Shown: positions 44,977 to 63,015 of the stretch, in pieces
Position numbering within the stretch: the stretch's first letter is position 1
Layout of the letters: each line of letters opens with the position of its first letter
Origin: an uncultured bacterium
Lineage (GTDB): Bacteria; Patescibacteriota; Minisyncoccia; Phycocordibacterales; Phycocordibacteraceae
NCBI GenBank assembly: GCA_963759775.1
Contig: CAVXAH010000001.1
Coordinates: forward strand, 464,682-528,681
DNA: 64,000 nt
Direction: 5' to 3'
Made by a program: the position numbers and the translations under genes
Notes under the pieces: model-generated
What the model was told of the DNA's origin: nothing
Seen by the model: only the letters and a program-made list of their open reading frames with translations
Database searches by the model: none

Positions 44977-46755
44977 TTATTTTAGAAATCCGCCCGCCTG
45001 AATTTCCCATAGTTTTTTGTAGAGATTGCTTTCTTGTGCAAGAAGCTCGTCATGAGAACCAGAAAGCACCACGTTTCCTTTTTCCATAACAATAATTTTG
45101 TCCATTTTCATGATTGTGGAGAGCCGGTGCGCAATTGCGATAATTGTTTTCCCCTGCATAAGGTTTGCAAGCGCATCCTGAATCAGAGCTTCAGACTCAG
45201 AATCAAGGCTCGATGTTGCTTCATCGAGTACGAGAATCGGCGCATTTTTCAGGATTGCACGAGCAATCGCAACGCGCTGGCGCTCACCACCCGAGAGTTT
45301 TACGCCGCGCTCGCCAACATATGTTTCAAAGCCACTCGGATACTGTTTGATAAACTCGAGACAGTGCGCCTGTTTTGCGGCTTCGATAACTTCTGCATCC
45401 GTCGCCTCTGGTCGCCCATAGCGAATATTTTCCATAAGCGTGCGGTGAAAAAGAAGCGGCTCCTGTGGGACAAACGCAATAGAGGCGCGTAGACTTTCTT
45501 GCGATACTTGAGCAATGTTCTGTTTGTCGATAAGAATTGCTCCCCCTGAGACATTGTAGAGGCGTAGAAGAAGTTTAGTAATCGTGCTCTTTCCTGCGCC
45601 AGACGATCCTACAAGGGCAACTTTTTCGCGTGGAGCCACAGACAGGTTGAATTTTTGAAGAACCGCCATACCTTCACCATAGCGAAACTCAACATTTTGG
45701 AAATGAATCGCACCCTGGCTCACCGAGAGCGGTACGGCACGCGGTACATTCATAATGTCATGAGGCGTTTCGAGAATATCAACCATTTCAGATGCGTCGG
45801 AGAATGCGTCGTAAAGCTGACGCATATTTCTTCCAATACCCCAGGTACGATCAAAGAGTCCGAGGACGTATATCTGAATGAGCACAAAGTCACCCACGGT
45901 AAGTATCCCTTTCTGCCAGAGAAAAACTGACCCTCCCAAAAGTCCGAACTCAATACCAATCGCCAAGATGCCCTGAACACCAAATATCCAAATGTCTGCG
46001 CTCCATGCACGTATCGTTGCCTGATACCAACGCGTAACGGTCTCACCAAAACGCAAACGTTCAAAGGGGGCCGCTGCAAAGATAGTGACGGTTGAGTGGT
46101 TTGCCACCACATCCGACAACAGACCCGTCACCCGACTATCCTCTGCGGTCCGTGCGGTCCGAAGTGTTTGCTTCCAACGCGCCATGAGTATCTGTATGAG
46201 TACAAAAAAGACTGTCCAGACGAAAATACCCACACCAAGCCAAATATTTTTCATCGAGAGCACACCGATGATTCCCACTACATACACAAGGGCAGGCGAG
46301 AAATTTAAGAGAACATTGTCGAGCACTTGCTCAAATGCATTTACATACCGTGTCACTCGGCGCGTAAGTGTTCCTGCAAAGTGTGAAATAAAAAAATCGT
46401 GCGAATGACCAATAAGATATGCAAAAGCTGTCGCATATAAATCTTTCATGGCGCGCGCCTCAAAATTTAAAACGGTATACATGCGCAGGCGCTGACCAAG
46501 CCAGCTAACAAAACTAATAGAGCTAAACATAAAAAGCGTTATGAAAAGCGCATGGACTACTTCTGAGGAAGGTCCATTTTTAGTGAGCAAATTGATGAAC
46601 TTGCTTAAGTAGATTGGCCCGACTACATTTGCTATTTCGATCAAAAAAATGCCGCAAAAAGCGCCAAAAAGGAAATATGGGTATTTCACCGCCGCCTTTC
46701 CATAAGCCACCATTACGGCACGTACCTTCATTTCTTTTCTTAGTTCCTCGGGCAT
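44977..46755 (-). CDS. ABC exporter, fused permease/ATPase (MsbA/type I exporter-like)
   Basis: Six N-terminal TM segments. GSSGAGKST, LSGGERQRVAIARAIL, ILVLDEATSSLD. Confidence 0.9.
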   Translation of the reverse strand: MPEELRKEMKVRAVMVAYGKAAVKYPYFLFGAFCGIFLIEIANVVGPIYLSKFINLLTKNGPSSEVVHALFITLFMFSSISFVSWLGQRLRMYTVLNFEARAMKDLYATAFAYLIGHSHDFFISHFAGTLTRRVTRYVNAFEQVLDNVLLNFSPALVYVVGIIGVLSMKNIWLGVGIFVWTVFFVLIQILMARWKQTLRTARTAEDSRVTGLLSDVVANHSTVTIFAAAPFERLRFGETVTRWYQATIRAWSADIWIFGVQGILAIGIEFGLLGGSVFLWQKGILTVGDFVLIQIYVLGLFDRTWGIGRNMRQLYDAFSDASEMVDILETPHDIMNVPRAVPLSVSQGAIHFQNVEFRYGEGMAVLQKFNLSVAPREKVALVGSSGAGKSTITKLLLRLYNVSGGAILIDKQNIAQVSQESLRASIAFVPQEPLLFHRTLMENIRYGRPEATDAEVIEAAKQAHCLEFIKQYPSGFETYVGERGVKLSGGERQRVAIARAILKNAPILVLDEATSSLDSESEALIQDALANLMQGKTIIAIAHRLSTIMKMDKIIVMEKGNVVLSGSHDELLAQESNLYKKLWEIQAGGFLK

Positions 46756-47867: not shown

Positions 47868-49046
47868 CTAGGCAATCTTTCTGACGTAGGTTCGGTAGCT
47901 CATGAATCCAAGGCTAAGAGCGGCAAAACCGAGTACGGCAAGCGAATACAAGAGCCCGGTCGTATCGGTAAGAAACCCGAAGATCGCAAGTCCAATGATC
48001 GCCATGAGATTTGCAATGGAAGATTGGATCGACAAGACGGTTGCCCGTATGCCACTTGTGATGTGTCGGTGCAGATAATCTCCGACAAATGGGCGCATAA
48101 AGCCTCTCACGATGTTTTGCACAACCACTAAGTAGGCAAAGGACATAATGGGAACAAGACTCATGAGTAGGATCGGAAGACCAAGACAAAGGATCATTCC
48201 AAGAACGCAAGCCCGTTCCCCAATCCACCCCTCAACCTTATGCGCATTGTGGCTCGAGATCCACGCCGTTGCATTCAAGCAGAAGAAGATAACGCCATAG
48301 TAAGGAAGTGGAAGCTGCACCAATTCAAAGTACGGGTTGTAAGTGAAGAACCATACTTTTGAAGTGGTTGCGAGTAAGGCCGCAAATCCTACCATCCAAC
48401 GTACCTCGACTGACTTTATGACGAACATGGCGCCCTGCCTCAGCGTTTGGAGTTGTTTCTCTACCGAGTAGTGCTCTGTCTGTACAGGCTCTTTGAAGAA
48501 GAACGCTGCGACGAGCGGAATGAGCATAAACGGCAGGCCAATCCATAGCGGTAGTCGCAAATCAACATCAGCAAGGAATCCGACAGTAAGCGAACAACAG
48601 GCAATCAGAATCAATCGTGCCCCAATTGCTTGCCCTTCGATACGTTTGTATTCCGACTCCCTTCCTTGTTCCTTAAGAGTGTCGTACAGAAGAGCCGTAT
48701 CAGCTCCTGACTGCATGCTGAAGCCGATTGCCCACAAGATATTTCCGATCCACGCTTCAAGTGGAGTGCGCATGATGGTGAAGAAGAAAGCACTCCCGAA
48801 CAGAAAGACTCTACCGATGACGATGCTTTTCTTTCTCCCGATCACATCGGCAAGTGCTCCCGAAGGAATGTCGAGCAGAACACAGATACAGAGCACAACG
48901 GACTCCATGTAGTAGATATCCGGTAAGTCCATGTGTGCCAGCTTGCCGAGCGAGGTGATCAGAATCGGACCCCAGAGAAGAGGTTCATTGAAGATGGCGT
49001 ACAACCGATACAGCAGAATATTGCGTCCAGCGTCAATTTCGTTCAC
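47868..49046 (-). CDS. MFS transporter (12 TM)
   Basis: GALADVIGRKKSIVIGR is the MFS loop 2-3 motif. GTG start preceded by GGAGA. Confidence 0.85.
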   Translation of the reverse strand: MNEIDAGRNILLYRLYAIFNEPLLWGPILITSLGKLAHMDLPDIYYMESVVLCICVLLDIPSGALADVIGRKKSIVIGRVFLFGSAFFFTIMRTPLEAWIGNILWAIGFSMQSGADTALLYDTLKEQGRESEYKRIEGQAIGARLILIACCSLTVGFLADVDLRLPLWIGLPFMLIPLVAAFFFKEPVQTEHYSVEKQLQTLRQGAMFVIKSVEVRWMVGFAALLATTSKVWFFTYNPYFELVQLPLPYYGVIFFCLNATAWISSHNAHKVEGWIGERACVLGMILCLGLPILLMSLVPIMSFAYLVVVQNIVRGFMRPFVGDYLHRHITSGIRATVLSIQSSIANLMAIIGLAIFGFLTDTTGLLYSLAVLGFAALSLGFMSYRTYVRKIA

Positions 49047-49289
49047 AAGATTCTCCTTGAGAGAAGGTATGGATTATTTACGTGTGCGAGTTGTCAAAGA
49101 ACACGCTCTGCTCAAGAAAACGAGAAAACCTCGGCTTCCGCAGAGCCGAGGTTTTTCTAAAGGAGGGGAGTGATGAGAAAAATCGCGGCTATGCGCAAGG
49201 GAAAACAGCAAGAAGTGAAATCTTTGCCGTTTCGCACATGACATATCCGCGATTCAAATTCATAGATACATAATAATTAATCTGAGAGA
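49047..49289 (-). promoter_or_regulatory. Promoter plus ~200-nt structured leader with an intrinsic terminator upstream of the MFS gene (candidate riboswitch or attenuator)
   Basis: On the minus strand: TTGACA (49289-49284), 16-nt spacer, TATTAT (49267-49262). A closing helix AATCGCGG (49254-49247) / CCGCGATT (49188-49181) encloses 58 nt. A 12-bp hairpin (49155-49125) is followed by TTTTCTCGTTTTC. Then GGAGA and the GTG start at 49046. Confidence 0.45.
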
Positions 49290-49342
49290 TTTGTCAAATC
49301 ACATTGACTTGCGTTAATTAGAATTAAGTGTACAATGTTTTC

Positions 49343-50335
49343 ATGAATAACGTAACTTCTATGTTGCCGCCAAGCATTAAGGATTGGCGGGACCTCATAG
49401 GAAATACTCCACTCGTCAAAATTGAGCGTCTTTTTGCTGATAGCGAGCTTAATGTGTTCGCGAAATTGGAATCCTTCAATCTCGGAGGTAGTACGAAGGA
49501 TCGTCCGGCACTACTCATGCTCGAAAGTGCTTTGAAAGAAGGTGGAGTGAGTAAGGGAGGGACGGTGATCGAGTCTAGTTCTGGCAATATGGGTATCGGG
49601 CTTGCGCAAACTTGCCTGCGACACGGACTTAAATTCGTCGTGGTCGTTGACCCTCGTACCACGACCGCAAACATAAACGTAATGAAAGCGTTGGGAGCGA
49701 CTATTGAAATGGTTAATTCACTCGGCAAGAATACTGGTAGCTACCTCGAGTCTCGTCTCGAGAGAGTGGATCAGCTTCTCAAGGAAATTCCCGGGAGTTA
49801 TTGGCCGAATCAATATGCGAACGAGAATAATCCAAGGGCGCATCATAAAACAATGCAGGAAATCGATGACGCTTTGGGAGGCAAGGTCGACTACCTCTTT
49901 TGCGCAACTGGAACGTGCGGGACAATTCGCGGATGTTCAGATTATTTGCGACAGAAAGGGAGAGCTACAAAAATAATTGCGGTTGATGCTGAGGGGAGCG
50001 TCATCTTTGGCGGAAAACCCGGGAAGCGGCTGGTGCCAGGGCACGGTTCGTCAGCTCGATCGAATTTATATCGAGATGATATGGCTGATAAGGTTGTGCA
50101 CGTGGGAGACGAAGCCTGCGTCATCGGGTGCAGGCTACTCCTTGAAAAGGAAGCTATTTTTGCTGGTGGATCTTCCGGTGCAGTAGTCAGTGCTTTTCTA
50201 AAAATGAAAAACGAGATTCCTGCTGGCTCAAACGTCGTCATGATTTTTCCCGATCGCGGAGAAAGATATTTGGATACCGTTTACGATCCAGCTTGGGTCA
50301 ATGAAAATCTTGGAGAGGTTTCTATGAATATATAG
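49343..50335 (+). CDS. sbnA: SbnA-like PLP-dependent enzyme (N-(2-amino-2-carboxyethyl)-L-glutamate synthase; cysteine synthase fold)
   Basis: GNTPLV...AKLESFNLGGSTKDRPA...SSGNMGIGLA...YWPNQYANENN...IIAVDAEGSVIFGG...FAGGSSGA...IFPDRGERYLDTVYDPAW tracks S. aureus SbnA block by block. TACAAT box 6 nt upstream of ATG 49343 (the ORF track starts at GTG 49328). Confidence 0.8.
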   Translation: MNNVTSMLPPSIKDWRDLIGNTPLVKIERLFADSELNVFAKLESFNLGGSTKDRPALLMLESALKEGGVSKGGTVIESSSGNMGIGLAQTCLRHGLKFVVVVDPRTTTANINVMKALGATIEMVNSLGKNTGSYLESRLERVDQLLKEIPGSYWPNQYANENNPRAHHKTMQEIDDALGGKVDYLFCATGTCGTIRGCSDYLRQKGRATKIIAVDAEGSVIFGGKPGKRLVPGHGSSARSNLYRDDMADKVVHVGDEACVIGCRLLLEKEAIFAGGSSGAVVSAFLKMKNEIPAGSNVVMIFPDRGERYLDTVYDPAWVNENLGEVSMNI

Positions 50336-50337
50336 AT

Positions 50338-51360
50338 ATGTCACACAAAAACGATAAGCTCTGCATTCTCACGGGCGATGATGTTGGGAAAATTATTTCT
50401 GGCAAAGAGAATCGCATCATTGAGATTATTCGGGATGCGTATATTTCACATCAAAAAGGTGACAGCACCTTACCTCATTCTACGTTTCTTCGTTTCCCAG
50501 ATAAGGCAAAAGATAGAATTATCGGTCTACCCGCATACATTCAGGGCGCAGCAGGCATTAAATGGATCGCCTCATTTCCAGAGAACGTTAAACACGGTAT
50601 TGATCGTGCTTCGGCAGCCATTATCTTAAATTCCCTTGAAACGGGTCGCCCGTACGGAATTCTTGAAGGATCGATCATAAGTGCAAAGAGAACCGCGGCA
50701 AGTGCCGCGCTTGCTGCAAAAGTGCTTGCGGGCAATAGAACGATTGAAGACGTGAGTCTCATTGGGTGCGGGTTGATTAATTTCGAGATTCTAAAATTTC
50801 TCGTCTCACAGTTCAAAAATATTAAAGCGGTAAACATATTTGACCTCGATACAGAAAAAGCGAAAAAGTTTCTTTCAAAAACGGTTGAAATCGTTGATGC
50901 CGACGTTCGCATATGTGATAGTGCCGCAGAAGCATACGGGTCATCAAAACTCGTATCTTTTGCCACAACGGCATCTGTACCACATGTGAATGACACGGAC
51001 CTCTTTAGGGGGGATGCGATCATCCTCCATCTCTCCCTACGTGACTTAGGTGTGGGTATCATTAAAAACAGCATTAACGTTGTTGATGATCTCGATCATG
51101 TGAACCGAGAGCATACGAGTATTCATCTTGCTTCTCAAGAAACAGGGGCAACGAACTTTGTCACCACTTCTCTCGGGGAACTTCTGCTTGGAGTCAAACA
51201 GGCCCCCGAGTCCGGCAAACCCGTTATTTTTTCTCCGTTTGGCCTTGGGGTTCTCGATATACAATTGGCACGATTTGTATACGAAGAAGCTGCCAAGGAA
51301 GGAATGGGGACTGTAGTTAAAGATTTCATTCCGTCGAGCTGGCTCGAGAGACCTTACTAA
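50338..51360 (+). CDS. sbnB: SbnB-like NAD-dependent dehydrogenase (ornithine cyclodeaminase/mu-crystallin family)
   Basis: GIKWIASFPEN...RASAAIILNSLETGRP...SAKRTAASAALAAK...LIGCGLIN... is collinear with SbnB (GIKWIGS, RASGVIILND, SSMRTAAVS, IIGCGLIG). It starts 3 nt after sbnA. Confidence 0.75.
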   Translation: MSHKNDKLCILTGDDVGKIISGKENRIIEIIRDAYISHQKGDSTLPHSTFLRFPDKAKDRIIGLPAYIQGAAGIKWIASFPENVKHGIDRASAAIILNSLETGRPYGILEGSIISAKRTAASAALAAKVLAGNRTIEDVSLIGCGLINFEILKFLVSQFKNIKAVNIFDLDTEKAKKFLSKTVEIVDADVRICDSAAEAYGSSKLVSFATTASVPHVNDTDLFRGDAIILHLSLRDLGVGIIKNSINVVDDLDHVNREHTSIHLASQETGATNFVTTSLGELLLGVKQAPESGKPVIFSPFGLGVLDIQLARFVYEEAAKEGMGTVVKDFIPSSWLERPY

Positions 51361-51367
51361 AAATCTT

Positions 51368-52744
51368 ATGTTCGAAAAACTCCATTCAAGTGATCGGGCA
51401 AAAATTGTGACGGCATCTGTACCGGGAGCAAAATCGAGCGCTTTGCTTAAGAAGCAAGACGAACTCGAAAGTAATAATCGCTCGTATCCAAGAGGAACTC
51501 CGATTGCGTTTGCAAACGGGAAAGGTGCGATCATCGAGGACGTCGATGGCAATGCATACATCGACTTTCTCTCCGGATGCGGCGTTTTTAATCTTGGGCA
51601 TAACAATCCCTACATACTCGACGCAGTAAATGGTCGAGGGGACGCTCTCACTCAAGCAGTCGATTTTCCCACATCGGCAAAGATCTCTTTTATGGAGCGT
51701 TTGAATCAAGCTCTTCCACCAACACTACGCGATAAGGTAAAAATAAACTTCGGTGGGCCTACGGGCTCAGACGCCGTTGAGTCGGCGCTTAAGCTCGCTC
51801 GCATTGTCACAGGTCGACATACGATCATTGCGTTTCAGGGTGGATACCACGGAATGACCATGGGTGCGCTTAGTGTGACCAGTAAACTCTCTCATCGCAA
51901 ATCAGTCACGCCCCTTATTCCTGGAATACACTTCATGCCATTTTGTAGTCCGTACCGTTGTCCTTTCGCACGAGTCGATGGACCATGTACGGGAGAGTGC
52001 ATACGGTATTTCGAGTATTGTTTAACGAATCCACACTCGGGCATTGATAAGCCAGCGGCAATAATTATTGAACCCGTACAGGGTGAAGGAGGGACCTACA
52101 TACCAAGCACGGGGTGGCTTGAACAGGTGACCGATATCGCCAGAAAGAACGGCGTACTCGTTATCTTTGACGAAATTCAGTCCGGATTCTATCGAACGGG
52201 AAAACTATTTTCCTTCGAACATACACGTGCTGTTCCAGATATAGTCACCATGTCGAAAGGAATTGGAGGAAATGGATATCCTCTCTCGCTCATTTTATAT
52301 CGTAAAGAGTTTGATGTATGGGAACCAGGCACCCACATCGGAACGTTTAGAGGCAACCAGCTTGCAATGGTGGCTGGTTCGGCTGCGCTCGAATTTATCG
52401 ATAAATACGACGTTGCTTCGCATACCGCGAAGCTTGGTGAAGAGATGATTACAAATCTAAAAGAGGTTCAGAGAACTTCACGCTACATTGGTGATGTGCG
52501 CGGGATAGGAATGATGTTTGGTATTGAATTTGTTCAGGATAAGTCCAAGAAAGATGCGTATCCAGAAGCAGCAAAGCTGGTGAAAAAACTCTGCTACGAA
52601 AATGGTCTTATCGTTGAACTGGGTGGTTACTACAGCAACGTGGTGCGCTTTTTACCACCGCTCATTTTGACAGAAGCAATCGCGAAAAACGGCATTAAAA
52701 TATTTGCCGATGCGGTTCAGGAAATGGAGAATACTATTTCGTAG
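51368..52744 (+). CDS. Class-III PLP aminotransferase, diaminobutyrate-2-oxoglutarate transaminase (EctB/Dat)-like
   Basis: DVDGNAYIDFLSGCGVFNLGHNNP, FQGGYHGMT, IIEPVQGEGG, VIFDEIQSGFYRTGKLFSFEH, TMSKGIGGNGYPLS (catalytic Lys). Confidence 0.75.
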   Translation: MFEKLHSSDRAKIVTASVPGAKSSALLKKQDELESNNRSYPRGTPIAFANGKGAIIEDVDGNAYIDFLSGCGVFNLGHNNPYILDAVNGRGDALTQAVDFPTSAKISFMERLNQALPPTLRDKVKINFGGPTGSDAVESALKLARIVTGRHTIIAFQGGYHGMTMGALSVTSKLSHRKSVTPLIPGIHFMPFCSPYRCPFARVDGPCTGECIRYFEYCLTNPHSGIDKPAAIIIEPVQGEGGTYIPSTGWLEQVTDIARKNGVLVIFDEIQSGFYRTGKLFSFEHTRAVPDIVTMSKGIGGNGYPLSLILYRKEFDVWEPGTHIGTFRGNQLAMVAGSAALEFIDKYDVASHTAKLGEEMITNLKEVQRTSRYIGDVRGIGMMFGIEFVQDKSKKDAYPEAAKLVKKLCYENGLIVELGGYYSNVVRFLPPLILTEAIAKNGIKIFADAVQEMENTIS

Positions 52745-53264
52745 CAGGTTGTATCGCAATCAGTTGGCGGATAATCATATCTTCCCATTTCGTGATATGC
52801 GCGGGCTTAAAGTCAAACCAGACACGCATGAAGTCCTCACGCGAAAGTATGCGCAGTGTGCCAATTTCCGGGTCCTGTAGATAGATGTTCGAAGCGTCAA
52901 GCCCTACCACGACCGAATAGTGTCCATCAGGTACTTCACTGTCGCCATAATCCGTTCGCCCACGAGTAAACCAATTAACGATGACTGGTACGCCACGATC
53001 GAGCCATTGCTGCATGGAGTCGAACGAGGAATTGTTTTCAATCTCAACAGTAAAACCATATGACTCGGCCGCTTCTTTTAGAGAAGCATCGTCGGTGCCA
53101 AGCTCAAGATTGCGTTTGCATTTCTGCGCGATCTCCTCCTCATTTTTCTCAAGATTCCAAAACCCGAGAACCATCTTGAGGCTTGCGGGGCCACAGTAGC
53201 CACCGCCAAGTGTTTCTTGGAAGGGTTTTACTTGCAACAATTTCACTTTCTCCATACGGGTCAT
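52734..53264 (-). CDS. Stand-alone C39-like (papain-fold) cysteine peptidase domain protein
   Basis: Catalytic Cys context GGGYCGPASLKMVL and His context PDGHYSVVVGLD. 176 aa with no ABC fusion. Its 3' end overlaps the convergent aminotransferase gene by 11 nt. Confidence 0.65.
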   Translation of the reverse strand: MTRMEKVKLLQVKPFQETLGGGYCGPASLKMVLGFWNLEKNEEEIAQKCKRNLELGTDDASLKEAAESYGFTVEIENNSSFDSMQQWLDRGVPVIVNWFTRGRTDYGDSEVPDGHYSVVVGLDASNIYLQDPEIGTLRILSREDFMRVWFDFKPAHITKWEDMIIRQLIAIQPATK

Positions 53265-53268
53265 TTTA

Positions 53269-54639
53269 TCATTTTACGCATTTCAAAACCACGCTCCTCA
53301 TTTGATTCATCAAAGAATCGACGTCCTGACGATCATCCCCAATTACAACAACGCCCATGACCGGACGATTCGAACTTAAAAAAGAGACTAGGATACCGCG
53401 CTGTTCTTGATCTATAGGATAGAGTAAATCAGAAAGCGTTTGTAAGATTTCTGTCGGACTCAACGTAACGTCTCCGTATCGGAATGAATCTTTTGAAAAT
53501 ACATATCGATTCTTGAGGTTGTTCAGCTTGAGATGGGAAATTGCATCATACACGTGGGTACCTCCGGTCATTCGAGCATTGCATTCGAGAATATATAAAT
53601 TTCCGTCCGTGCCAGCTGCAAAATCAACATCGAATACACCCCTATACCCGAGCGTAAAAAGCTTGTTACCGATGCAATCGAGAGCTATTTTGATACGTTC
53701 ACTGATCTCGGCAAGAGACGTGTCGATTGATATACCTTCAAATTCGCCTTCTCGCGTTACTTCTTGTCCGCAGATGTAACTAAATGCAAATCCAGTTTCT
53801 GATATGCATCCTTCCCCAGAAGGAAAGCCGCCAGCGAGACTTGCGTCCGTTGGAATAAATTCTTCGACGACATAGGGTGCAAATTCCCAGATGTCTTCCG
53901 ATTGAAGTAGGTTGTCCAACCATGTGGCCAGTTGTGACGTATCAAAGCGTTTAGCTTCTTCCTCATCAACAATCTTAATCCCCCAACCGGATTCACCTTT
54001 GTGGATCTTTATAACGAATCCCTTATTGGCATTCAGGAATCCTAATATGGCTACAAGAACCTCCATTTTGTCTTTGCATATCGAGCCATTCGGTATTTTC
54101 ACTCCATCTTTCGGAAAAAGGCCGATGATTATGGTACGAAATCCATTTTTTGAATCGATAGTTTCCGCTAGTTCAGCAGGCTTTTCTATCTTAGATAAGT
54201 TAACCACACTGAGGTTGCCAATCTCATCTCGCAGCAGTTTTACGAGTGCAACATATTCTTTCGTTACTGCGTATGAGCAAATACGCGTAGCGGGATTCCC
54301 GCGAAGAAGGTCATAAAGCTTATCCATCAATTCCGCATCTCTTGTGATCGCCGTACAAAGACGAAGCCCCGGCTCCTTAGGCCACAAGTTTACTACGTTG
54401 CCGTACCCGAGGTGCCCCTTGTTACATTTGAGCAATGCGGCTGGAATTGGCTCAGGCGTAATGATGATTTTGTTATCTCCTCCCCAAAACTGCGCACGCT
54501 GGGACAAGTCCATCTCATGTGAGATTCGTTCTTTTCTAGCATCGTTGGAGGTGGAGTTTTCCAAAAGATCGGCAAACGCCTCAGCAGTATTTGCAATAAA
54601 AATGTCTTGTATCCGCGACATATAAAAAGTAAGGGGCAC
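53269..54639 (-). CDS. ATP-grasp family ligase with a long N-terminal pre-ATP-grasp region
   Basis: C-terminal ATP-grasp core GYRGVFDVDFAAGTDGNLYILECNARMTGGTHVY. Central KGFVIKIHKGESGWGIKIV. 456 aa. Confidence 0.65.
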   Translation of the reverse strand: MPLTFYMSRIQDIFIANTAEAFADLLENSTSNDARKERISHEMDLSQRAQFWGGDNKIIITPEPIPAALLKCNKGHLGYGNVVNLWPKEPGLRLCTAITRDAELMDKLYDLLRGNPATRICSYAVTKEYVALVKLLRDEIGNLSVVNLSKIEKPAELAETIDSKNGFRTIIIGLFPKDGVKIPNGSICKDKMEVLVAILGFLNANKGFVIKIHKGESGWGIKIVDEEEAKRFDTSQLATWLDNLLQSEDIWEFAPYVVEEFIPTDASLAGGFPSGEGCISETGFAFSYICGQEVTREGEFEGISIDTSLAEISERIKIALDCIGNKLFTLGYRGVFDVDFAAGTDGNLYILECNARMTGGTHVYDAISHLKLNNLKNRYVFSKDSFRYGDVTLSPTEILQTLSDLLYPIDQEQRGILVSFLSSNRPVMGVVVIGDDRQDVDSLMNQMRSVVLKCVK

Positions 54640-54658
54640 CCAGTTAGGTGCCCCAATT

Positions 54659-55663
54659 CTACATCAATCGTTCGCGTCGTATGGCTGTCACGAGAATCCG
54701 TTCAATCAGGTCCTCGAACCCGCAACCCTCAAAGGACGCCATTTTGGTGAGAGTGTTATTGAGACCATGCGTATTTGGACCAATCCCGGGGTTGTAGTTA
54801 ACCTCGAGCAGGAATACCTCTTCGTCCTCACGAACTCGGAAGTCCATGCGAGCATAGTCCCGGCACTCCGTTGCCACAAACATACGTTTTGTGTATTCAC
54901 TGAGGAGATTCAATACGTCGGTCGGAAGTACGGCTTGCACCATCTGTTCCTGCCTACCGCCCCACTTGTATTCGTAGGATCGGATTTGCTCAAAGGGGTT
55001 TGCGGCTCCCTCGAACAAGAACTCGAGCGCAGGAAGTGTGTGCAGGTCATCGCCGTTGCCAATTACTCCAACTGAAATCTCACGACCAAGCACGAATGCT
55101 TCGACAATCGCCGGTTGCCGATAGAGTCGCAACGCGTCGCCTATTTTCCGTTCCAATGATTCCAGCTTGTGCACGACGCTATCGAAACGGATCCCAATAC
55201 TTGCCTCCTCTCGTACTGGCTTAACAATGAGAGGAAACGGAAGCCCATTCTGTAGCATCTCGTTCTCCCTCCGAAATATTTGATACAGCGGCGTTGGAAC
55301 TCCGTTTGCGAGCGCGACCAACTTTGTTTGCGCTTTATCGAGCGTGAGGCTCATGTTATGGGCCGACGCCCCGGTAAACGGGATTTCAAGCGCCTCAAGC
55401 ATCATCGGCACCAACACCTCATTAGTGTTGGTGCCTCCGAATGCCTCGGCCATGTTGAGGACAATATCGAAGGATCCTTTCCGCGCCTTGAGTTCTTCCC
55501 AGAGCACCATTGAAGCCTCGAGTGTCTCGACGTCGTATCCCTTTGACCGCAGAAGGGAGACGACGAGCGGGACAATGATCCGGATTTCCTGTTCACAGAT
55601 CAGATCCCGCTCGTCGCCCTTTTTGAGTGCGGTAGCGACGTTGTAAAGAATCAATATTTTCAT
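54659..55663 (-). CDS. D-alanine--D-alanine ligase-family ATP-grasp enzyme
   Basis: FPLIVKPVREEASIGI..., EAFVLGREISVGVIGN, YARMDFRVREDEEVFLLEVNYNPG. Strong GGAAGGAGGAAG Shine-Dalgarno before ATG 55663. Confidence 0.75.
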   Translation of the reverse strand: MKILILYNVATALKKGDERDLICEQEIRIIVPLVVSLLRSKGYDVETLEASMVLWEELKARKGSFDIVLNMAEAFGGTNTNEVLVPMMLEALEIPFTGASAHNMSLTLDKAQTKLVALANGVPTPLYQIFRRENEMLQNGLPFPLIVKPVREEASIGIRFDSVVHKLESLERKIGDALRLYRQPAIVEAFVLGREISVGVIGNGDDLHTLPALEFLFEGAANPFEQIRSYEYKWGGRQEQMVQAVLPTDVLNLLSEYTKRMFVATECRDYARMDFRVREDEEVFLLEVNYNPGIGPNTHGLNNTLTKMASFEGCGFEDLIERILVTAIRRERLM

Positions 55664-55676
55664 CGCTTCCTCCTTC

Positions 55677-56642
55677 CTACAGTTGGATGACTTTGTCGGT
55701 GTAGTCCCGGCAACGCGTGATATCGGGAACGTCCCAGAAACCAAGCGGAACCGGTATTTTACCGATGCCTTCGACATCGACGATATATTGCGGCAATGCA
55801 ATTCCAGACATGCGTTTGTGAAGCGCCGTCATGATTTCGCGTTCCCGCGCCATATCGCAGACAAAATGCTCAAGACCTTTTACGTAGTCGCACCGATACA
55901 GGTAATACGGAATGACGCCAGCGTAGTAGAGCTTCTTGAAAAGCTCTTCCAGAACTTCTTCTGCGTCGTTTACGGCCTTGAGAAATACCGTTTGCGAGAG
56001 CATTGGAAATCCGTATGCACGTATGGTGCGCAGCACATCCAGGACCTCGTAGTCGAGTTCATTCGGATGATTTGCGTGCACCAACACGTACGTCTGGAAG
56101 CTTGCTCCGCTTGCCTGAAGCTCACGAAGCGCTTTTACCACTTGTGGCGAAGCCATACTTTTCGGCGAGTGGATCGGTAGACGAGTTCCAATGCGAACCA
56201 CACGCACCGATGGAATCTCTCGCAATCCCGCAATAACCCGTAGCAACGTCTTGGGAACGACAAACGGATCGCCGCCGCTCAAGATTACATCATCGACTTC
56301 CGGGTGAGAGCCGATGTACTGAAGCGCTGACTCAATGTCAGCTTCCAGCAAATCTCCCTCCGGTGAACCGATCTGTCGGATTCTTGTACAGAAGCGACAG
56401 TGAGCTGCGCAGCGGCATGTCGTTTTCCAAAGCACCCGGTTTGGATACTTGTGAACGATTCCTTTGACGGGTGAGTACGCTACCTCTTCTCCGAGAGGAT
56501 CGTTTGGTACGACAACTCCCTCGAAAGCTGGTTGGATTTGGAATTGCTTCGCAATGGCCGTACTGCCGTCACGAATTTTTCTCTGCAAATGCGCAGTAAT
56601 TCTCTCTTTCATGATGGACCTCACTTGGTTAACGAAGGACAA
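55677..56642 (-). CDS. KamA-family radical SAM aminomutase (lysine 2,3-aminomutase / EpmB-like)
   Basis: CAAHCRFCTR (CxxxCxxC), DVILSGGDPFVVP, VRIGTRLPI, HANHPNEL. Confidence 0.8.
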   Translation of the reverse strand: MSFVNQVRSIMKERITAHLQRKIRDGSTAIAKQFQIQPAFEGVVVPNDPLGEEVAYSPVKGIVHKYPNRVLWKTTCRCAAHCRFCTRIRQIGSPEGDLLEADIESALQYIGSHPEVDDVILSGGDPFVVPKTLLRVIAGLREIPSVRVVRIGTRLPIHSPKSMASPQVVKALRELQASGASFQTYVLVHANHPNELDYEVLDVLRTIRAYGFPMLSQTVFLKAVNDAEEVLEELFKKLYYAGVIPYYLYRCDYVKGLEHFVCDMAREREIMTALHKRMSGIALPQYIVDVEGIGKIPVPLGFWDVPDITRCRDYTDKVIQL

Positions 56643-56765
56643 ACTTCTGCTATTTACAATAGCATAATTAATTGTGTAGTCAACTTAGTAGGTTTTTAGG
56701 TGACTGCGGAAAAGGAGTAGGAAATACGGGCTGGATTGGCGGGAGGGTGGGGAGGGGCGGAGGGC

Positions 56766-57933: not shown

Positions 57934-58780
57934 ACAAAATAAAATACTAGCCTCTCGACAGGCTTTCAGCGATTACGTATATACGCCAATTACAGAAGCA
58001 GTTAAGCTTTTGAAAGAAAGAAGGGAAGACAAGAAACTTTGTAAAAAAATAGAAGAACACGTTAGAAGTGTCTATGGAGAAATGCCAAATACGTTTCAGG
58101 GCGAAGGCGTTGCGGTTCTTTGTCGGCAAGCCACTCCAAACTATGAGCAGCTACGCTTCTTGAGTTTTGCCGACCTAATGGATCTTCAGCCGGTATTTTG
58201 GGAGTATCAAGATGATAAATTTGTATCAGGTAATCTTGGCAAGCATCGGCTAGGGCATCTTGGGTTTCATTATGGTTTTGGAAAAAGTGGAGAATCAAAA
58301 ACGGAGTATATGAAAGTCATCGATTTTTCAAAGGAAGATGGTAAGAAAATATCTCAAGTGAAAACATTGTGGGGCCAGGATTTGATGAATTTTCATCACG
58401 AACTTTTTTCGATTCAAAGTCCTTCACTTAACCAACAAGATGTTTTTATCGATGGCTCGACTTGGTTTAAGAGAAATGGAGTAAATGTAAATGATTCTTA
58501 CGCTGCAATGCTTACTATGTTTTTGACTCACGGTATTCTCTTTGAAAATTTTCTTCTTGATGGTCGCGAACTCGAGTTTTCTCGAAATGTTTTTCTCCCC
58601 GCGTTTGTTGCGGTGGAAGAAATATTTGGTTGTAAGCCACTGATTGTTCCACTTGATCCAATTGATGTTGAAGGTGAAGAGTTCTGGTTCTGCTACCCAC
58701 CATCTCTTAAGAAGAGTGTTAGTGAAAAAATGGAAAATAAGCTCATAATAAATACAAAAAACGTATGGCAGACTCACTAA
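57875..58780 (+). CDS. Hypothetical protein (no recognised domain); start uncertain (57875 or ATG 57920)
   Basis: Long ORF with coding-like composition. It overlaps the neighbouring genes at both ends by a few codons. Confidence 0.5.
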   Translation: MMNPTEIRVQSISVPMKESEQNKILASRQAFSDYVYTPITEAVKLLKERREDKKLCKKIEEHVRSVYGEMPNTFQGEGVAVLCRQATPNYEQLRFLSFADLMDLQPVFWEYQDDKFVSGNLGKHRLGHLGFHYGFGKSGESKTEYMKVIDFSKEDGKKISQVKTLWGQDLMNFHHELFSIQSPSLNQQDVFIDGSTWFKRNGVNVNDSYAAMLTMFLTHGILFENFLLDGRELEFSRNVFLPAFVAVEEIFGCKPLIVPLDPIDVEGEEFWFCYPPSLKKSVSEKMENKLIINTKNVWQTH

Positions 58781-60387
58781 TAAACAGCTGTTCTTTGTTG
58801 CAGCTTGAGACGGGGACCACTCCGATTGCGTTGTATTCTCACCTTGTACCTATTGCGGTCTTCTTGATAGTAGGAGGCTTTGTCTTCTTCCGCTCAAGAG
58901 AAAACAAATTAAAGGGGATTTTCTCATTATTCGTTGGTACATTTGCACTTTGGCTTGTTGGAGATCTTATTACGTGGGTGTCGGCAAACTACTACACAAT
59001 ATACGCATTTTGGGCAACACTTGATTTTCTTGAGGTAGCTTTCTTTGTGCTCGGTACCTATTTTGCCGCACTGCTTGTGTATGGTCAGAAACTACCGATT
59101 GCACTAAGAGTCTTTTTCCCTGTAGTTCTACTGGCGCCTCTAGTTATCACCCTCACAGGGCAGTCCACACACGAGTTTAACTATGCGGTGTGTGAATCGT
59201 TTGAGAATGAGTCGCTTACGCACTACAAGCTTTATTCCGAGGTAGCCCTACTCCTACTCCTTGTTTTTCTCGGTTCGCGCATACCTAAACTATCTCTCCC
59301 GCACAAAGGTCCTCTATACGCAATCGTTGCGTCCCTCTTCCTCTTTTTGGGCACGTTCTCATTAAGTTCGTATCTCGCGTCAGTTACTTACTACTACGAA
59401 TTCTTGTTCTATGGTCTTCTTGCACTGCCAGCCTTCTTCATCGTTCTCGTGTACTCCATCACAAACTTCGAACTTTTCCGAGTGCAGGCTTTTGGAGTTC
59501 AGGTTTTGATCTATCTCATCCTCATCCTTGTTTCGGCCCAATACCTATTTGTCACCTCAACGACAAATAAAGTCCTCGTGGGAATAACACTTCTCCTGAC
59601 GGGAGTGTTTGGATACCTTTTTCAGCAAAGTGCGATTCGCGAGATAAAACTTCGCGAGCAGACTGAAAGACTTGCTGCAGACTTGGAAGAGACCAATAAA
59701 CGGCAGGAGACACTTATGCACTTCGTGGGACATGAGGTTAAAGGGTTTCTCACGAAGGCGCAGGGAGCATTTGCTTCGCTTTCGGAAGGGGATTATGGGC
59801 AACTTTCAGACGGCATGAAGCCGCTCGTCACTCAGGCGCTTGCCGAAACACGTACGGGAGTTGAGTCTGTAACGGCGCTTCTCAAGGCTTCAAACCAAAA
59901 GAAGGGAACTATTTCATACCAAATGACTCTGCTTGATCTCTGTGCTCTTACTAAAGAACAAGTTGAAAAGGCGCGACCGGCGGCAGAGAAGAAAGGTCTC
60001 AAGCTCACCTTTAGCTATGAGAGCACACGCGCAACATGCACCATGACGGGCGACAAAGCGGAACTTGGCGACCACGTGCTTCGGAACCTGATAGACAACG
60101 CGGTTGCGTATACCCCCTCCGGCTCAATTGATGTATCCCTCAAGAGAACAAACGGTCACTACGTATTTGCGGTAAAAGACACCGGCGTTGGCATTACGGA
60201 CGAAGACAAGAAGCGACTCTTTACCGAAGGCGGTCACGGCAAGGACTCACAGAAAATAAACGTGCACTCAACCGGCTACGGTCTTTTCATCGCCAAGAAT
60301 ATTGTGGAAGCCCATCACGGTACTATCCGCGCCGAGTCTGAAGGACAAGGGAAGGGCACGACCTTCATCGTTGAGCTGCCTGCCTAA
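58765..60387 (+). CDS. Sensor histidine kinase with an N-terminal ~7-8 TM domain (paralog 1)
   Basis: FVGHEVKGFLTKAQGAF (H-box), [61 protein letters not shown]. Confidence 0.9.
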   Translation: MADSLINSCSLLQLETGTTPIALYSHLVPIAVFLIVGGFVFFRSRENKLKGIFSLFVGTFALWLVGDLITWVSANYYTIYAFWATLDFLEVAFFVLGTYFAALLVYGQKLPIALRVFFPVVLLAPLVITLTGQSTHEFNYAVCESFENESLTHYKLYSEVALLLLLVFLGSRIPKLSLPHKGPLYAIVASLFLFLGTFSLSSYLASVTYYYEFLFYGLLALPAFFIVLVYSITNFELFRVQAFGVQVLIYLILILVSAQYLFVTSTTNKVLVGITLLLTGVFGYLFQQSAIREIKLREQTERLAADLEETNKRQETLMHFVGHEVKGFLTKAQGAFASLSEGDYGQLSDGMKPLVTQALAETRTGVESVTALLKASNQKKGTISYQMTLLDLCALTKEQVEKARPAAEKKGLKLTFSYESTRATCTMTGDKAELGDHVLRNLIDNAVAYTPSGSIDVSLKRTNGHYVFAVKDTGVGITDEDKKRLFTEGGHGKDSQKINVHSTGYGLFIAKNIVEAHHGTIRAESEGQGKGTTFIVELPA

Positions 60388-61254: not shown

Positions 61255-63015
61255 ATGCCAGGTGCATCCAAGTGGGCCCATTTCAAAGAGGTTTTTCTTT
61301 TTTGGTCTGATCGTTTGCTTGATATTTTCATTTTTGGCGTCTTTACGCTTGCCGTTTTCGCCGCGCCAGCCGTGAGCGTGTATCAGTATTTTCGTCAGGT
61401 GGTGCCACAAGGATGCACTCCGCTTCTTGGCGTCGGTGGGGAAGACCTACATGCCGTTGCGTACTACGTACACATAGTGCCCATCATGGTGCTTCTCTTG
61501 GTGGCAGGCTTCATCCTCGTTTCTTCACACGAAGGCAGAACAAAGAGAATATTTGCATTATTTGTAGGCGCCTTTTCGCTCTGGCTTGTTGGCGACCTCA
61601 TCACCTGGGTTTCGGGAAACGAGGCGGCACTCTACGCGGCGCAGACGACACTCAGTTTTCTTGAGATAGCCTTTTTTGTCCTCGGCGCATATTTTGCCGC
61701 ACTGCTTCTCTATGGCGGACGCGTACCCACATTCCTTCGACTTCTGTTTCCGCTCATCCTTCTTGCGCCTCTCCTGGTCATATTTAACGGCAATCTGACT
61801 TCCGGATTCTTCCATGGGCTCTGCAATCCCTTCGGGCACGGCATCCTCGCCGCGTATCCGCTTTATGCAGAGGTCATCATCTTGGGGCTTCTCGCGTATT
61901 TCTGGGCGCGCGTTCCGTACTCCACGTTTCCCTCAAAACCCCTCTACGCAATCATCGCCTCGCTCTTTATGTTTCTCGGTACCTTTGCGATAGGCTCGTT
62001 CGTCGTGTGGCTCACTTCCCATCACGAGTTCCTTTTTTACGGATTGCTTGCCCTCCCTGTGTTTCTCATTGTTCTTGTGTATTCAATAACGAACCTTGAG
62101 CTCTTCCGCGTACAGTCGTTTGGTATACAGGTTTTGATTTATCTTATTCTGCTTCTCATCTCGGCCCAGTTCCTTTTCGTGGACTCTCTTAAGGACCAGC
62201 TTTTGATAGGCATTACGCTTGTTTTCACCGCGATTTTCGGCTATCTCTTCCAGCAAAGTGCGCTTCGCGAGGTCGTACAGCGCCACAAAATAGAAGTGCT
62301 TGCCGGAGACTTAAAAGACACCAATCAGCGTCAGGAGTCACTCATTCACTTCGTGGGGCACGAAGTGAAAGGGTTCCTCACGAAGGACCAAGGAGCTTTC
62401 GCAGAGCTCGCCGAAGGCGACTTAGGCCCGCTCCCACAAGGAGCGAAGTCATTTGCGGAAACGGCGCTCTCGGGTACCCGCGATGCCGTACGCTCTATCA
62501 GCGACATTCTTGCCGCTTCCAACCTGAAAAAAGGCACAACGACGTTTCAAATGGTGGCGTTTGATCTGAAAAAAGTAATTGCCGAGGCGGTTGAAAAGGC
62601 CCAAGGGATGGCGAAACAGAAGGGACTTGCGCTTTCATTTGCCGTTCCAGACTTGGTTTCGCCCTACCTGCTTCAGGGCGACCCAGGACAGCTCGGCGAT
62701 CACGTATTTCGCAATATAATAGAAAACGCAATTAACTACACACCATCAGGCTTTGTGCAGACATCTCTCAAAAAAGAAGAAAGCAAATATGTCTTTACGG
62801 TGAAAGACACGGGCGTTGGAATCACGGACGAAGATAAAAAGCATCTCTTCACCGAAGGCGGCCACGGCAAGGACTCGCAGAAAATAAACGTGCACTCAAC
62901 CGGCTATGGTCTCTTTATTGCGAAGAACATTGTAGAAGCCCACCGAGGTACTATCCGCGTGGAATCAGAAGGGGAGGGCAAAGGCACCACCTTCATAGTT
63001 GAATTGCCGGTATAG
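61255..63015 (+). CDS. Sensor histidine kinase with an N-terminal ~8 TM domain (paralog 2)
   Basis: Collinear with the 58765-60387 product ([76 protein letters not shown]). Confidence 0.9.
   Translation: MPGASKWAHFKEVFLFWSDRLLDIFIFGVFTLAVFAAPAVSVYQYFRQVVPQGCTPLLGVGGEDLHAVAYYVHIVPIMVLLLVAGFILVSSHEGRTKRIFALFVGAFSLWLVGDLITWVSGNEAALYAAQTTLSFLEIAFFVLGAYFAALLLYGGRVPTFLRLLFPLILLAPLLVIFNGNLTSGFFHGLCNPFGHGILAAYPLYAEVIILGLLAYFWARVPYSTFPSKPLYAIIASLFMFLGTFAIGSFVVWLTSHHEFLFYGLLALPVFLIVLVYSITNLELFRVQSFGIQVLIYLILLLISAQFLFVDSLKDQLLIGITLVFTAIFGYLFQQSALREVVQRHKIEVLAGDLKDTNQRQESLIHFVGHEVKGFLTKDQGAFAELAEGDLGPLPQGAKSFAETALSGTRDAVRSISDILAASNLKKGTTTFQMVAFDLKKVIAEAVEKAQGMAKQKGLALSFAVPDLVSPYLLQGDPGQLGDHVFRNIIENAINYTPSGFVQTSLKKEESKYVFTVKDTGVGITDEDKKHLFTEGGHGKDSQKINVHSTGYGLFIAKNIVEAHRGTIRVESEGEGKGTTFIVELPV

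Follow-up and report, generated by a model that had tools for sequence, protein, structure and literature searches.

The 64,000-nucleotide stretch of DNA analysed here (the window) comes from an uncultured bacterium of the Candidate Phyla Radiation (CPR, or Patescibacteria). Between positions 49328 and 56642 it carries a cluster of seven genes, coding for two ATP-grasp ligases, a C39-like cysteine peptidase and four enzymes that would supply amino acid building blocks. The cluster is real, it is conserved and, as far as could be found, it is undescribed. Its conserved core is a triad, consisting of a ligase related to D-Ala-D-Ala ligase (Ddl-like), a second ATP-grasp ligase here called AG450, and the C39-like enzyme. 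The remaining genes, which code for a KamA-like aminomutase, a transaminase and the pair SbnA/SbnB, are plug-in modules. We hypothesise, with slightly more confidence than doubt, that the cluster encodes a pathway independent of non-ribosomal peptide synthetases (NRPS), in which the ATP-grasp ligases make a short polycationic (pseudo)peptide from L-2,3-diaminopropionate (Dap), probably L-2,4-diaminobutyrate (Dab), and beta-lysine (beta-Lys). An earlier note on this DNA had proposed a polycationic pseudopeptide. This was right in outline, but the triad has to be placed at its centre, a transporter of the major facilitator superfamily (MFS) has to be dropped from the core, and Dab has to be regarded as probable.

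Distribution and conserved core of the cluster

The survey comprised 80 loci from a scan of GTDB together with six others, which were compared using tblastn and all-against-all clustering of their open reading frames (ORFs). Proteins at least 31% identical to the AG450 of the window were counted as its orthologues, giving 34 non-redundant loci, nearly all of them from Patescibacteria. A Ddl-like gene is found beside the AG450 orthologue in 30 of the 34, and a C39-like gene in 28. Of the six loci that have no C39-like gene, four are on contigs ending at that point, and one of the four that have no Ddl-like gene is cut at that end. The other modules are optional: a transaminase is present in 16 loci (in L037 it is merely a class-III paralogue of 27% identity), KamA in 14 and SbnA/SbnB in 12. 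The triad is often found without building-block genes, so that Dap, Dab and beta-Lys are optional inputs. The earlier note had treated the seven genes as one pathway unit. They are indeed syntenic in relatives, but the unit that is conserved is the triad, and the supply genes come and go.

The number, position and orientation of the genes vary considerably. There are at least 12 different orders and orientations, and yet the cluster genes are contiguous in every locus, with no foreign gene ever interposed. The order seen in the window is also found in L009 and L010. In L021 and L030 all seven genes are on a single strand in the order Kam-SbnA-SbnB-Ddl-AG-C39-AT; in L034, SbnB/SbnA are divergent from Kam-Ddl-AG-C39; and in L017 and L025 the order is AG-C39-Ddl. 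Because the same genes are contiguous in many genomes, in different orders, their grouping is far beyond chance. It could be argued that two unrelated operons, sbnA-sbnB-transaminase and kamA-ddl-AG450-C39, happen to lie side by side, as they are on opposite strands here and each is found elsewhere without the other. We give this idea practically no credence: the two sets adjoin each other in no fewer than 12 architectures, among them the single-strand loci L021 and L030 and a plasmid island in Thioflavicoccus mobilis, described below.

The triad is inherited together, and neighbour-joining trees of its three proteins are broadly congruent. The proteins diverge at different rates. Where AG450 is 31–38% identical to the window protein, the Ddl-like protein, the C39-like protein and the transaminase are 53–68% identical (57–64% for the Ddl-like protein). 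No other neighbouring family, including any transporter, recurs beyond near-duplicate or closely related genomes.

Relatives of AG450 were found in 289 of about 185,000 GTDB species representatives (one genome per species), a number which includes paralogues and is a lower bound, as it comes from a pattern scan. An exhaustive profile search gave 338 representatives at E <= 1e-30. Most of the family members are from Kaiserbacteria, Daviesbacteria and other Patescibacteria. The cluster had been expected to be unusual for a reduced, CPR-like genome. Instead it is mainly a CPR feature, and is sporadic elsewhere. CPR bacteria are generally regarded as poor in biosynthetic capacity. A dedicated 7-kb pathway that recurs in many lineages would mean that they invest in at least one specialised product derived from amino acids, which could bear on the dealings of these epibionts with their hosts or competitors.

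The cluster is horizontally mobile. On one 4-kb contig, binned as Nanoarchaeota, the triad adjoins a transposase. In another locus a module for type-IV secretion and a recombinase, the context of an integrative and conjugative element (ICE), is next to the ligase pair. Relatives of AG450 are also found in Aminicenantes, Victivallales and Sulfitobacter. The conjugative plasmid pTHIMO01 of T. mobilis 8321, a cultured gammaproteobacterium, carries a 7-kb island (L094, NC_019941.1 5308-12172) with a GC content of 51–55%, compared to 62–70% for the plasmid, and with an IS66 element on one side. The genes of the island code for an AG450-like protein (the PLSDB gene table lists no feature for its ORF), KamA, a Ddl-like protein, SbnB, SbnA and a Dat-type transaminase, and these are 30–45% identical to the proteins of the window. 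The six biosynthetic genes are together on pTHIMO01 despite this divergence, so they travel jointly across phyla. The C39-like gene is missing from the island, and also from L015 and L093. A tblastn search with AG450 against phage records gave no match.

Predicted functions of the enzymes

The genes of the window are arranged as two convergent operons, with an MFS gene divergent from sbnA. The earlier note had listed these eight genes, and their coordinates, strands and families were all confirmed, as were the divergent position of the MFS gene and the 11-nt overlap of the convergent operon ends (52734-52744). It had also stated that there are no NRPS, polyketide synthase (PKS) or NRPS-independent siderophore (NIS) synthetase genes nearby, and a Pfam scan of the larger ORFs of the window, which are a subset of its ORFs, indeed gave no such domain. 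The plus-strand operon has gaps of 2 nt (sbnA-sbnB) and 7 nt (sbnB-transaminase). The gaps in the minus-strand operon (kamA, ddl-like, AG450, C39) are 13, 37 and 13 nt, and a promoter-like site is found upstream of it at 56656-56683 on the minus strand (TTGACT-16-(TG)TATTGT, a match to consensus only). Within the 37 nt that separate the Ddl-like gene from that of AG450 is a GC-rich stem-loop with a 9-bp stem (54633-54654, minus strand), which may be a signal for processing or attenuation within the operon. Rfam gave no known RNA or riboswitch in the cluster even at E <= 1, and PADLOC matched none of the eight proteins to a known defence system.

The SbnA-like pyridoxal phosphate (PLP) enzyme is encoded by the ORF at 49328-50335 on the plus strand. 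Starts at 49343 and 49361 are possible, and the gene on the source contig, of 324 residues, corresponds to the start at 49361. It is followed by an SbnB-type NAD-dependent dehydrogenase of the OCD family (50338-51360, plus strand). Both score above the cut-offs of the NCBIfam equivalog models: 421.8 bits against 349.95 for SbnA (TIGR03945) and 398 against 326.9 for SbnB (TIGR03944). The top PDB match of the first is SbnA of S. aureus (251 bits), with O-acetylserine lyase and cysteine synthases at 205 bits or less, and that of the second is SbnB of S. aureus (4m54). As solved relatives of the pair, the S. aureus proteins outrank CmnB/CmnK. The SbnA-like protein thus sides with SbnA and not with CysK, as the earlier note had it, and the cysK and cysM models score far under their own cut-offs on it. 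The equivalents of K47, R132 and Y152 are retained, and the position of S185 is occupied by Gly, as it is in CysK. We take these four to be the active-site positions addressed by the mutant structures of S. aureus SbnA. The pair would constitute the two-step route to Dap. The alternative DabABC route leads to 2,3-diaminobutyrate and needs a threonine kinase and an enzyme resembling argininosuccinate lyase (PMC10906522). It was rejected because both the kinase and the lyase gene are absent.

The third gene on the plus strand (51368-52744) codes for a class-III aminotransferase of the Dat family. It passes the cut-off of the 'dat' family model TIGR00709 (440.9 bits against 401.6) but is under the cut-offs of the equivalog models for EctB (TIGR02407, 381 against 552) and the PvdH type (PRK06938, 500 against 671). 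The ranking of PDB matches is EctB (6rl5, 269 bits), GABA transaminase (258) and archaeal racemases of the class-III fold (199–234). Homologues beside the triad in 15 other non-redundant loci are 61–84% identical to it. The product is probably Dab, as a family-level assignment: GABA transaminase and the racemases score close behind EctB, and therefore Dab is the likeliest product but not a secure one. The previous description of the enzyme as EctB-like and Dab-forming holds to the extent that the Dat-family cut-off is passed; the EctB equivalog cut-off is missed. A pathway to ectoine or 1,3-diaminopropane was rejected, as neither the ectA/ectC nor the ddc partner genes are found at the cluster.

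The KamA-like radical-SAM/PLP enzyme, of 311 residues, is encoded on the minus strand at 55677-56612 (ORF to 56642). It contains the motif CAAHCRFC, and an alignment to lysine 2,3-aminomutase (LAM; 2A5H) shows that the CxxxCxxC cysteines and the equivalents of LAM Arg134, Asp293, Asp330 and the PLP lysine Lys337 are all kept. In LAM, Arg134 binds the carboxylate of lysine, and Asp293 and Asp330 its epsilon-ammonium group. Conservation of the two aspartates indicates lysine or a similar cationic substrate. The protein is shorter than clostridial LAM (416 residues); the alignment stops at LAM residue 341, and the C-terminal domain is missing. It scores under the cut-off of every model tried, namely TIGR00238 (187.5 bits against 199.2), AblA (211.6 against 525) and AblA_like_2 (233 against 396). 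Based on the conserved residues, it is probably a short 2,3-aminomutase making beta-Lys. The score for the EpmB model TIGR03821 is 195 bits against a cut-off of 369, and no EpmA-like protein was found in a scan of the window that took in the ORFs of the cluster, those flanking it and the larger ones, in agreement with the earlier suggestion that the gene is not epmB. Neither a grouping with CysK/CysM, nor a grouping with EpmB, nor an absence of synteny turned up.

The KamA-like enzyme bears on the idea that the cluster reversibly tags a protein with amino acids, comparable to RimK with S6 or to the tubulin ligases with their cysteine or M14 peptidases, or that it provides a route for beta-Lys to elongation factor P (EF-P) that does not use EpmA. 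The unusual conservation of the Ddl-like and C39-like proteins (75% mean column identity for the latter), a weak match of the Ddl-like protein to TTL in Pfam, and an M14-like peptidase at one variant locus would fit with tagging. We find it hardly credible, since KamA is optional and the EpmB model is missed, the cluster has no conserved gene for a small protein or target beside it, and the solved enzymes of PGM1/BesA type and Ddl type use small substrates.

The Ddl-like ligase is on the minus strand at 54659-55663, called as 334 residues (the ORF, 54659-55801, would code for 380). It has a Dala_Dala_lig_C domain; the models for Ddl itself give at most 140 bits against a cut-off of 243, and the protein is under the cut-offs of all Ddl and Van models. 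With reference to E. coli DdlB, it keeps the equivalents of K97, K144, E180, E187, K215, R255, D257, E270 and N272, which handle ATP, Mg and the transition state, and it also keeps Glu15, the residue that binds the amino group of the first substrate. The D-Ala site is substituted in most of the family (H63G, S150A, Y210R, Y216W and S281G), and there is an inserted loop. As the D-Ala residues are replaced and the catalytic residues are kept, this sequence is that of a predicted active ligase of different specificity, and not that of a D-Ala-D-Ala ligase. In other words, it has the ATP-grasp fold, the domain, the catalytic residues and the substrate-amino glutamate in common with the D-Ala-D-Ala and Van ligases, but scores below all their cut-offs, lacks their D-Ala residues and lies outside a dcw/mur context. 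As for a second, canonical ddl, only the cluster copies were found in the window and the fetched loci, which are too short for this to be informative.

A role in cell-wall chemistry would have the ligases build a diamino acid side chain or bridge on a peptidoglycan precursor, or a D-Ala-D-X terminus, with the C39-like enzyme as an endopeptidase. One ligase is related to Ddl, diamino acids are suited to peptidoglycan cross-links, and the enterococcal ATP-grasp D-aspartate ligase offers a parallel. In addition, the model of the C39-like protein matches the pseudomurein endoisopeptidase PeiR, and AG450 has a faint match to ATPgrasp_ST. We nevertheless consider this role very unlikely. The D-Ala-binding residues of Ddl are replaced; mur, fem and pbp genes are not conserved neighbours; the AG450 family was found in only 289 species representatives, a lower bound; and the plasmid island occurs in T. 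mobilis, a Gram-negative bacterium that would be expected to have its own chromosomal ddl. Furthermore, we know of no peptidoglycan that contains beta-Lys or Dap.

AG450 is encoded on the minus strand at 53269-54621 (ORF to 54639); its product of 450 residues is identical to P0001. Pfam gives only faint matches, including the one to ATPgrasp_ST, and the score against the BesA equivalog is 25 bits compared to a cut-off of 750. However, a profile of the family finds the Streptomyces ligase 8ynd (2.8e-17), BesA (3.9e-14) and PGM1 (8.9e-14). An AlphaFold2 model (pLDDT 93.6) superposes over its full length on 8ynd/8ynq, PGM1 and BesA in Foldseek, with TM scores of 0.68–0.82; other ATP-grasp enzymes such as PurK and biotin carboxylase give about 0.5. 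K205 and the motif E346-x-N348-x-R350 are invariant. AG450 is thus predicted, from profile and fold, to be an ATP-grasp amide ligase of the PGM1/BesA type. It had previously been described as a protein of 456 residues with a long N-terminal extension. The ATP-grasp assignment is correct, but the product has 450 residues and, given the full-length superposition, the 'extension' is the normal N-domain of the clade. The relationship to PGM1 (pheganomycin), BesA (gamma-Glu-propargylglycine), 8ynd and the ketomemicin ligases is one of fold and profile. The identity is only 16–18%, the partner genes are different, and no precursor peptide is found here. RefSeq labels the AG450 homologues on Streptomyces plasmids as 'peptide ligase PGM1-related protein'.

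The smallest protein of the triad is the C39-like cysteine peptidase, with 173 residues (52734-53255, ORF to 53264, minus strand). It matches Peptidase_C39_2 (62.3 against a cut-off of 24) and Peptidase_C39 (46 against 22) in Pfam, and weakly BtrH_N. Q13, C21, H112 and D128 are invariant in the family. In Foldseek the predicted fold matches the C39 domains of ComA, PCAT1 and LahT, with TMt about 0.8, compared to about 0.3 for CtaG. Inspection of the sequence by eye, with no predictor, shows no evident signal peptide and no hydrophobic or membrane segment. The protein is not fused to an ABC exporter, nor is a paired ABC gene conserved. It would therefore appear to be a stand-alone and cytoplasmic enzyme.

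This fold raises the question of a hybrid pathway similar to that of pheganomycin, in which the C39-like enzyme would remove the Gly-Gly leader of a precursor encoded at a distance, and the PGM1-type ligase would cap the new N-terminus with a non-proteinogenic residue or with the dipeptide from the Ddl-like ligase. PGM1, which is among the closest solved relatives of AG450, ligates an unusual acid to ribosomal peptides (PMC8939145), and the C39-like model fits the leader-cleaving ComA, PCAT1 and LahT best, with an intact Q/C/H/D set. However, BesA is equally close to AG450 and uses free amino acids as substrates, the C39-like gene is missing from the T. mobilis island although both ligases and all the supply genes are there, and the graspetide loci known from CPR bacteria have other ligases and neighbours. 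Precursors were searched for among intergenic ORFs of 18–90 residues lying no more than 2 kb from the cluster, and this was done for all 34 non-redundant loci (39 with near-duplicates). When these were clustered, no small ORF, of Gly-Gly type or otherwise, was conserved beyond near-identical genomes, and an adjacent precursor of a ribosomally synthesised and post-translationally modified peptide (RiPP) was rejected on this basis. The lack of any such conserved ORF also speaks against the hybrid, to which we attach a rather small probability.

Proposed pathway and product

On the basis of these assignments, the pathway that we favour would run as follows. SbnA and SbnB would convert O-phospho-L-serine and glutamate to Dap. 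The transaminase would make Dab from aspartate semialdehyde, with the 2-oxoglutarate released by SbnB being returned to glutamate, and the KamA-type aminomutase would make beta-Lys from lysine. Both ATP-grasp ligases would form amide bonds by way of acyl-phosphate intermediates: the Ddl-type ligase would join two amino acids to a dipeptide, and the PGM1/BesA-type ligase would then acylate a free amine, either on this dipeptide or on another residue. The expected product, a tri(pseudo)peptide or short oligomer, would be rich in amines. It could be trimmed, hydrolysed or edited in the cytoplasm by the C39-like enzyme, for turnover, maturation or self-protection, and in this genome it might be exported by an MFS pump whose gene has a structured leader. 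A specific tripeptide, with one residue per module and two bonds, receives about half of the confidence that we place in the pathway as a whole.

Several observations weigh against this pathway. The supply modules come and go independently, and many loci consist of the triad only; Dap, Dab and beta-Lys thus cannot be obligatory substrates. The substrate-site residues of the Ddl-like ligase do not differ between loci that carry supply genes and loci that lack them. Since this site is constant and AG450 evolves fast, the Ddl-like enzyme probably uses a constant pair of ordinary substrates, with AG450 taking the variable residues made by the cluster, possibly repeatedly, as HsvB does in the synthesis of phevamine (PMC6187163). 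In addition, the transaminase is not assignable beyond the level of the family, C39 domains usually cleave ribosomal peptides after Gly-Gly, and no exporter is conserved next to the cluster.

The variant loci are relevant to the division of labour between the ligases. L040 (1788-7125) and L043 (6023-11359) have one Ddl-like gene followed by three tandem, mutually divergent genes of AG450 type, and L042 has a KamA-like gene followed by two. Such tandem genes are the pattern expected if a defined oligopeptide is built with one ligase for each of its amide bonds. In a bolder version, the triad would be a modular assembly line exchanged horizontally and centred on Patescibacteria, in which a Ddl-type starter and one to three PGM1-type extenders make defined polycationic oligo(iso)peptides of Dap, Dab and beta-Lys. 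The C39-like enzyme would here be no hydrolase but, like CtaG and BtrH, a transpeptidase or ligase. The peptide would then be moved onto an acceptor of the cell or its host, or an epibiont effector against hosts would be released. This version as a whole strikes us as rather improbable.

The MFS gene (47868-49046, minus strand, 392 residues, Pfam MFS_1) codes for a protein with weak similarity to efflux pumps of the Tet/Tap type. The earlier note had made it the exporter of the pathway, but no homologue adjoins the cluster in any other locus surveyed. The pump is peripheral to the cluster, and may export its product in this genome only. The gene has a near-consensus promoter-like site at 49297-49270 on the minus strand (TTGACA-16-TATTAT) and a 219-nt 5' leader (49047-49297 region, minus strand) with a folding energy of -70.7 kcal/mol (z = -5.66 against shuffled sequence). 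Within this leader are a terminator-like hairpin with a U-run (49155-49125) and short ORFs, for example one of 24 residues at 49263-49189. There is no Rfam match to the leader, which may be an attenuator or riboswitch that controls the pump. An ABC half-transporter (44977-46755, minus strand) with ABC_membrane and ABC_tran domains is also present, and homologues of 62–63% identity are found within a few kb of the cluster only in L001–L003 and L034. This is a weak hint that it could be an alternative exporter.

If the product is not exported, basic amino acids might be kept inside the cell as a reversibly built pool or polymer, for use as a nitrogen store, polyamine surrogate or solute; the ligases would build it, and the C39-like enzyme would degrade it or create primers. 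That no transporter is conserved beside the cluster, and that the three core proteins appear cytoplasmic when their sequences are read by eye (no predictor was used), would agree with this. The pairing of ligase and hydrolase recurs with different hydrolase families, and analogues can be found in cyanophycin synthetase with cyanophycinase and in glutathionylspermidine synthetase with its amidase. ATP-grasp enzymes can also be iterative: the product phevamine A is assembled by two of them, one of which, HsvB, acts twice (PMC6187163). On the other hand, the sporadic and mobile distribution (the transposase contig, the ICE and the plasmid island) is more typical of accessory or conflict functions, the peptidase is missing from the T. 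mobilis island and from L015 and L093, and an MFS pump does adjoin the cluster in this genome. We judge a store to be unlikely, though worth keeping in mind.

To our knowledge, peptides of Dap, Dab and beta-Lys have so far been found to be joined only by NRPS or by Pls-type synthetases. If the pathway that we favour is correct, it would be an ATP-grasp route to such peptides which requires neither NRPS nor ribosome. At one to four per locus the ligases seem to be modular, and they are also small and soluble, all of which could make them attractive for biocatalysis. Because the cluster is small, and six of its genes are on a plasmid of the cultured T. mobilis 8321, the hypothesis can be tested directly.

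Comparison with known systems, and other features

A literature search, which did not cover the amidoligase review of Iyer et al. 2009, found no description of this combination of genes, in line with the view in the earlier note that it is not a described pathway. The cluster resembles the ATP-grasp pathways to small peptides (dapdiamide, phevamine, dipeptides of the bacilysin type, ketomemicin and BesA), but without their signature enzymes. Dapdiamide, from the ddaA-I genes of Pantoea agglomerans (Hollenhorst et al. 2009, as cited in PMC6187163), is reportedly made independently of NRPS, with Dap of the SbnA/SbnB type, ATP-dependent ligases and an exporter gene alongside. These features are the same as in the present cluster. 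The dapdiamide pathway however needs an adenylating ligase that forms the fumaramoyl group, as well as tailoring enzymes, both of which are absent here, and it is not known to have KamA, a Dat-type transaminase, ligases of the Ddl and PGM1 types, or a C39-like enzyme. The hsv locus of Pseudomonas syringae, which makes phevamine A (PMC6187163), also uses two ATP-grasp ligases and a building-block enzyme to make a polycationic amide. Its scaffold is different, consisting of amidinospermidine, Val and Phe, and its ligases belong to other ATP-grasp clades; the locus has no peptidase and no genes to supply diamino or beta-amino acids.

The two-enzyme route to Dap is shared with staphyloferrin B (SbnA/SbnB) and with the tuberactinomycins (CmnB/CmnK, VioB/VioK), and the tuberactinomycins likewise combine Dap with beta-Lys. 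These products are assembled by NIS synthetases or NRPS, neither of which is in the cluster, and for lack of an NIS synthetase a siderophore of the staphyloferrin type was rejected. Poly-Dap, poly-gamma-Dab, epsilon-poly-Lys, oligo-beta-Lys and delta-poly-Orn, from actinomycetes and Acinetobacter, are polycationic isopeptides that share their monomers with the product proposed here, but their synthesis relies on membrane-bound, single-module NRPS-like synthetases of the Pls type and not on ATP-grasp enzymes (PMC4668381, PMC9606270, PMC10522769). The systems of closthioamide CtaG and butirosin BtrH combine an ATP-grasp enzyme, a papain/C39-like enzyme and beta-amino acid or diamine blocks, as in the cluster, but are thiotemplated on carrier proteins (PMC7183216, PMC12865890), of which the cluster has none. 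A pathway on a LysW-type carrier protein was rejected, since there is no small carrier ORF and no LysZ/LysY. The graspetide loci of CPR bacteria (Makarova et al.) have an MdnB/C-type ligase, a precursor with a leader motif and a cluster-23 protein, and the present cluster differs from them in the clades of its ligases and in its neighbours.

Outside the triad, divergent AG450 relatives are found next to other amide hydrolases or in loci resembling small-molecule gene clusters, which would fit with the proposed pathway. L044, from a CPR3 genome, has one beside a Peptidase S58 and an M14/AstE-like enzyme; the S58 (DmpA) family includes beta-aminopeptidases. In Sulfitobacter the relative is beside a GNAT protein and a C45 Ntn hydrolase. 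On plasmid pAtA74a_b of Agrobacterium tumefaciens (L095, 5434-13243) an AG450-like 'hypothetical protein' is next to LuxI/LuxR genes. Its other neighbours are a 2-oxoglutarate-Fe(II) oxygenase, a protein resembling diaminopimelate decarboxylase, a creatininase-family protein, a nucleoside 2-deoxyribosyltransferase and a MATE pump, and judging by these genes L095 is apparently a small-molecule gene cluster. A paralogous AG450 clade (group B, within L038–L086, for example L057, L059, L062 and L068), with 25–30% identity, is common in Gottesmanbacteria and Collierbacteria. Most of these genomes have no Ddl-like and C39-like partner genes, and the neighbours of the clade, assigned by eye, are a VirB4-like ATPase, NUDIX and TsaD-like proteins. 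In L001 (12384-16982) and L090 (10404-16504), ThiF-like and nitroreductase-like genes, in L090 together with YcaO, are found at a distance of a few kb from the cluster, or from a C39-like gene that stands alone, which suggests a separate locus for a peptide of the azoline type, as in thiazole/oxazole-modified microcins (TOMM).

Two further features of the window are worth adding. A plus-strand ORF at 20120-26878 codes for 2252 residues, in which the sole recognisable domain is a Peptidase_S74 (endosialidase chaperone) near the C-terminus; the product is probably a giant protein, either of the surface or resembling a fibre. The 64 kb also contain four histidine kinases with HATPase_c domains (4399-5574, 14809-16812, 58765-60387 and 61255-63015) and an OmpR-type regulator (18757-19425), which seems a large number of signalling genes for so small a genome (the contig is 594,792 bp).

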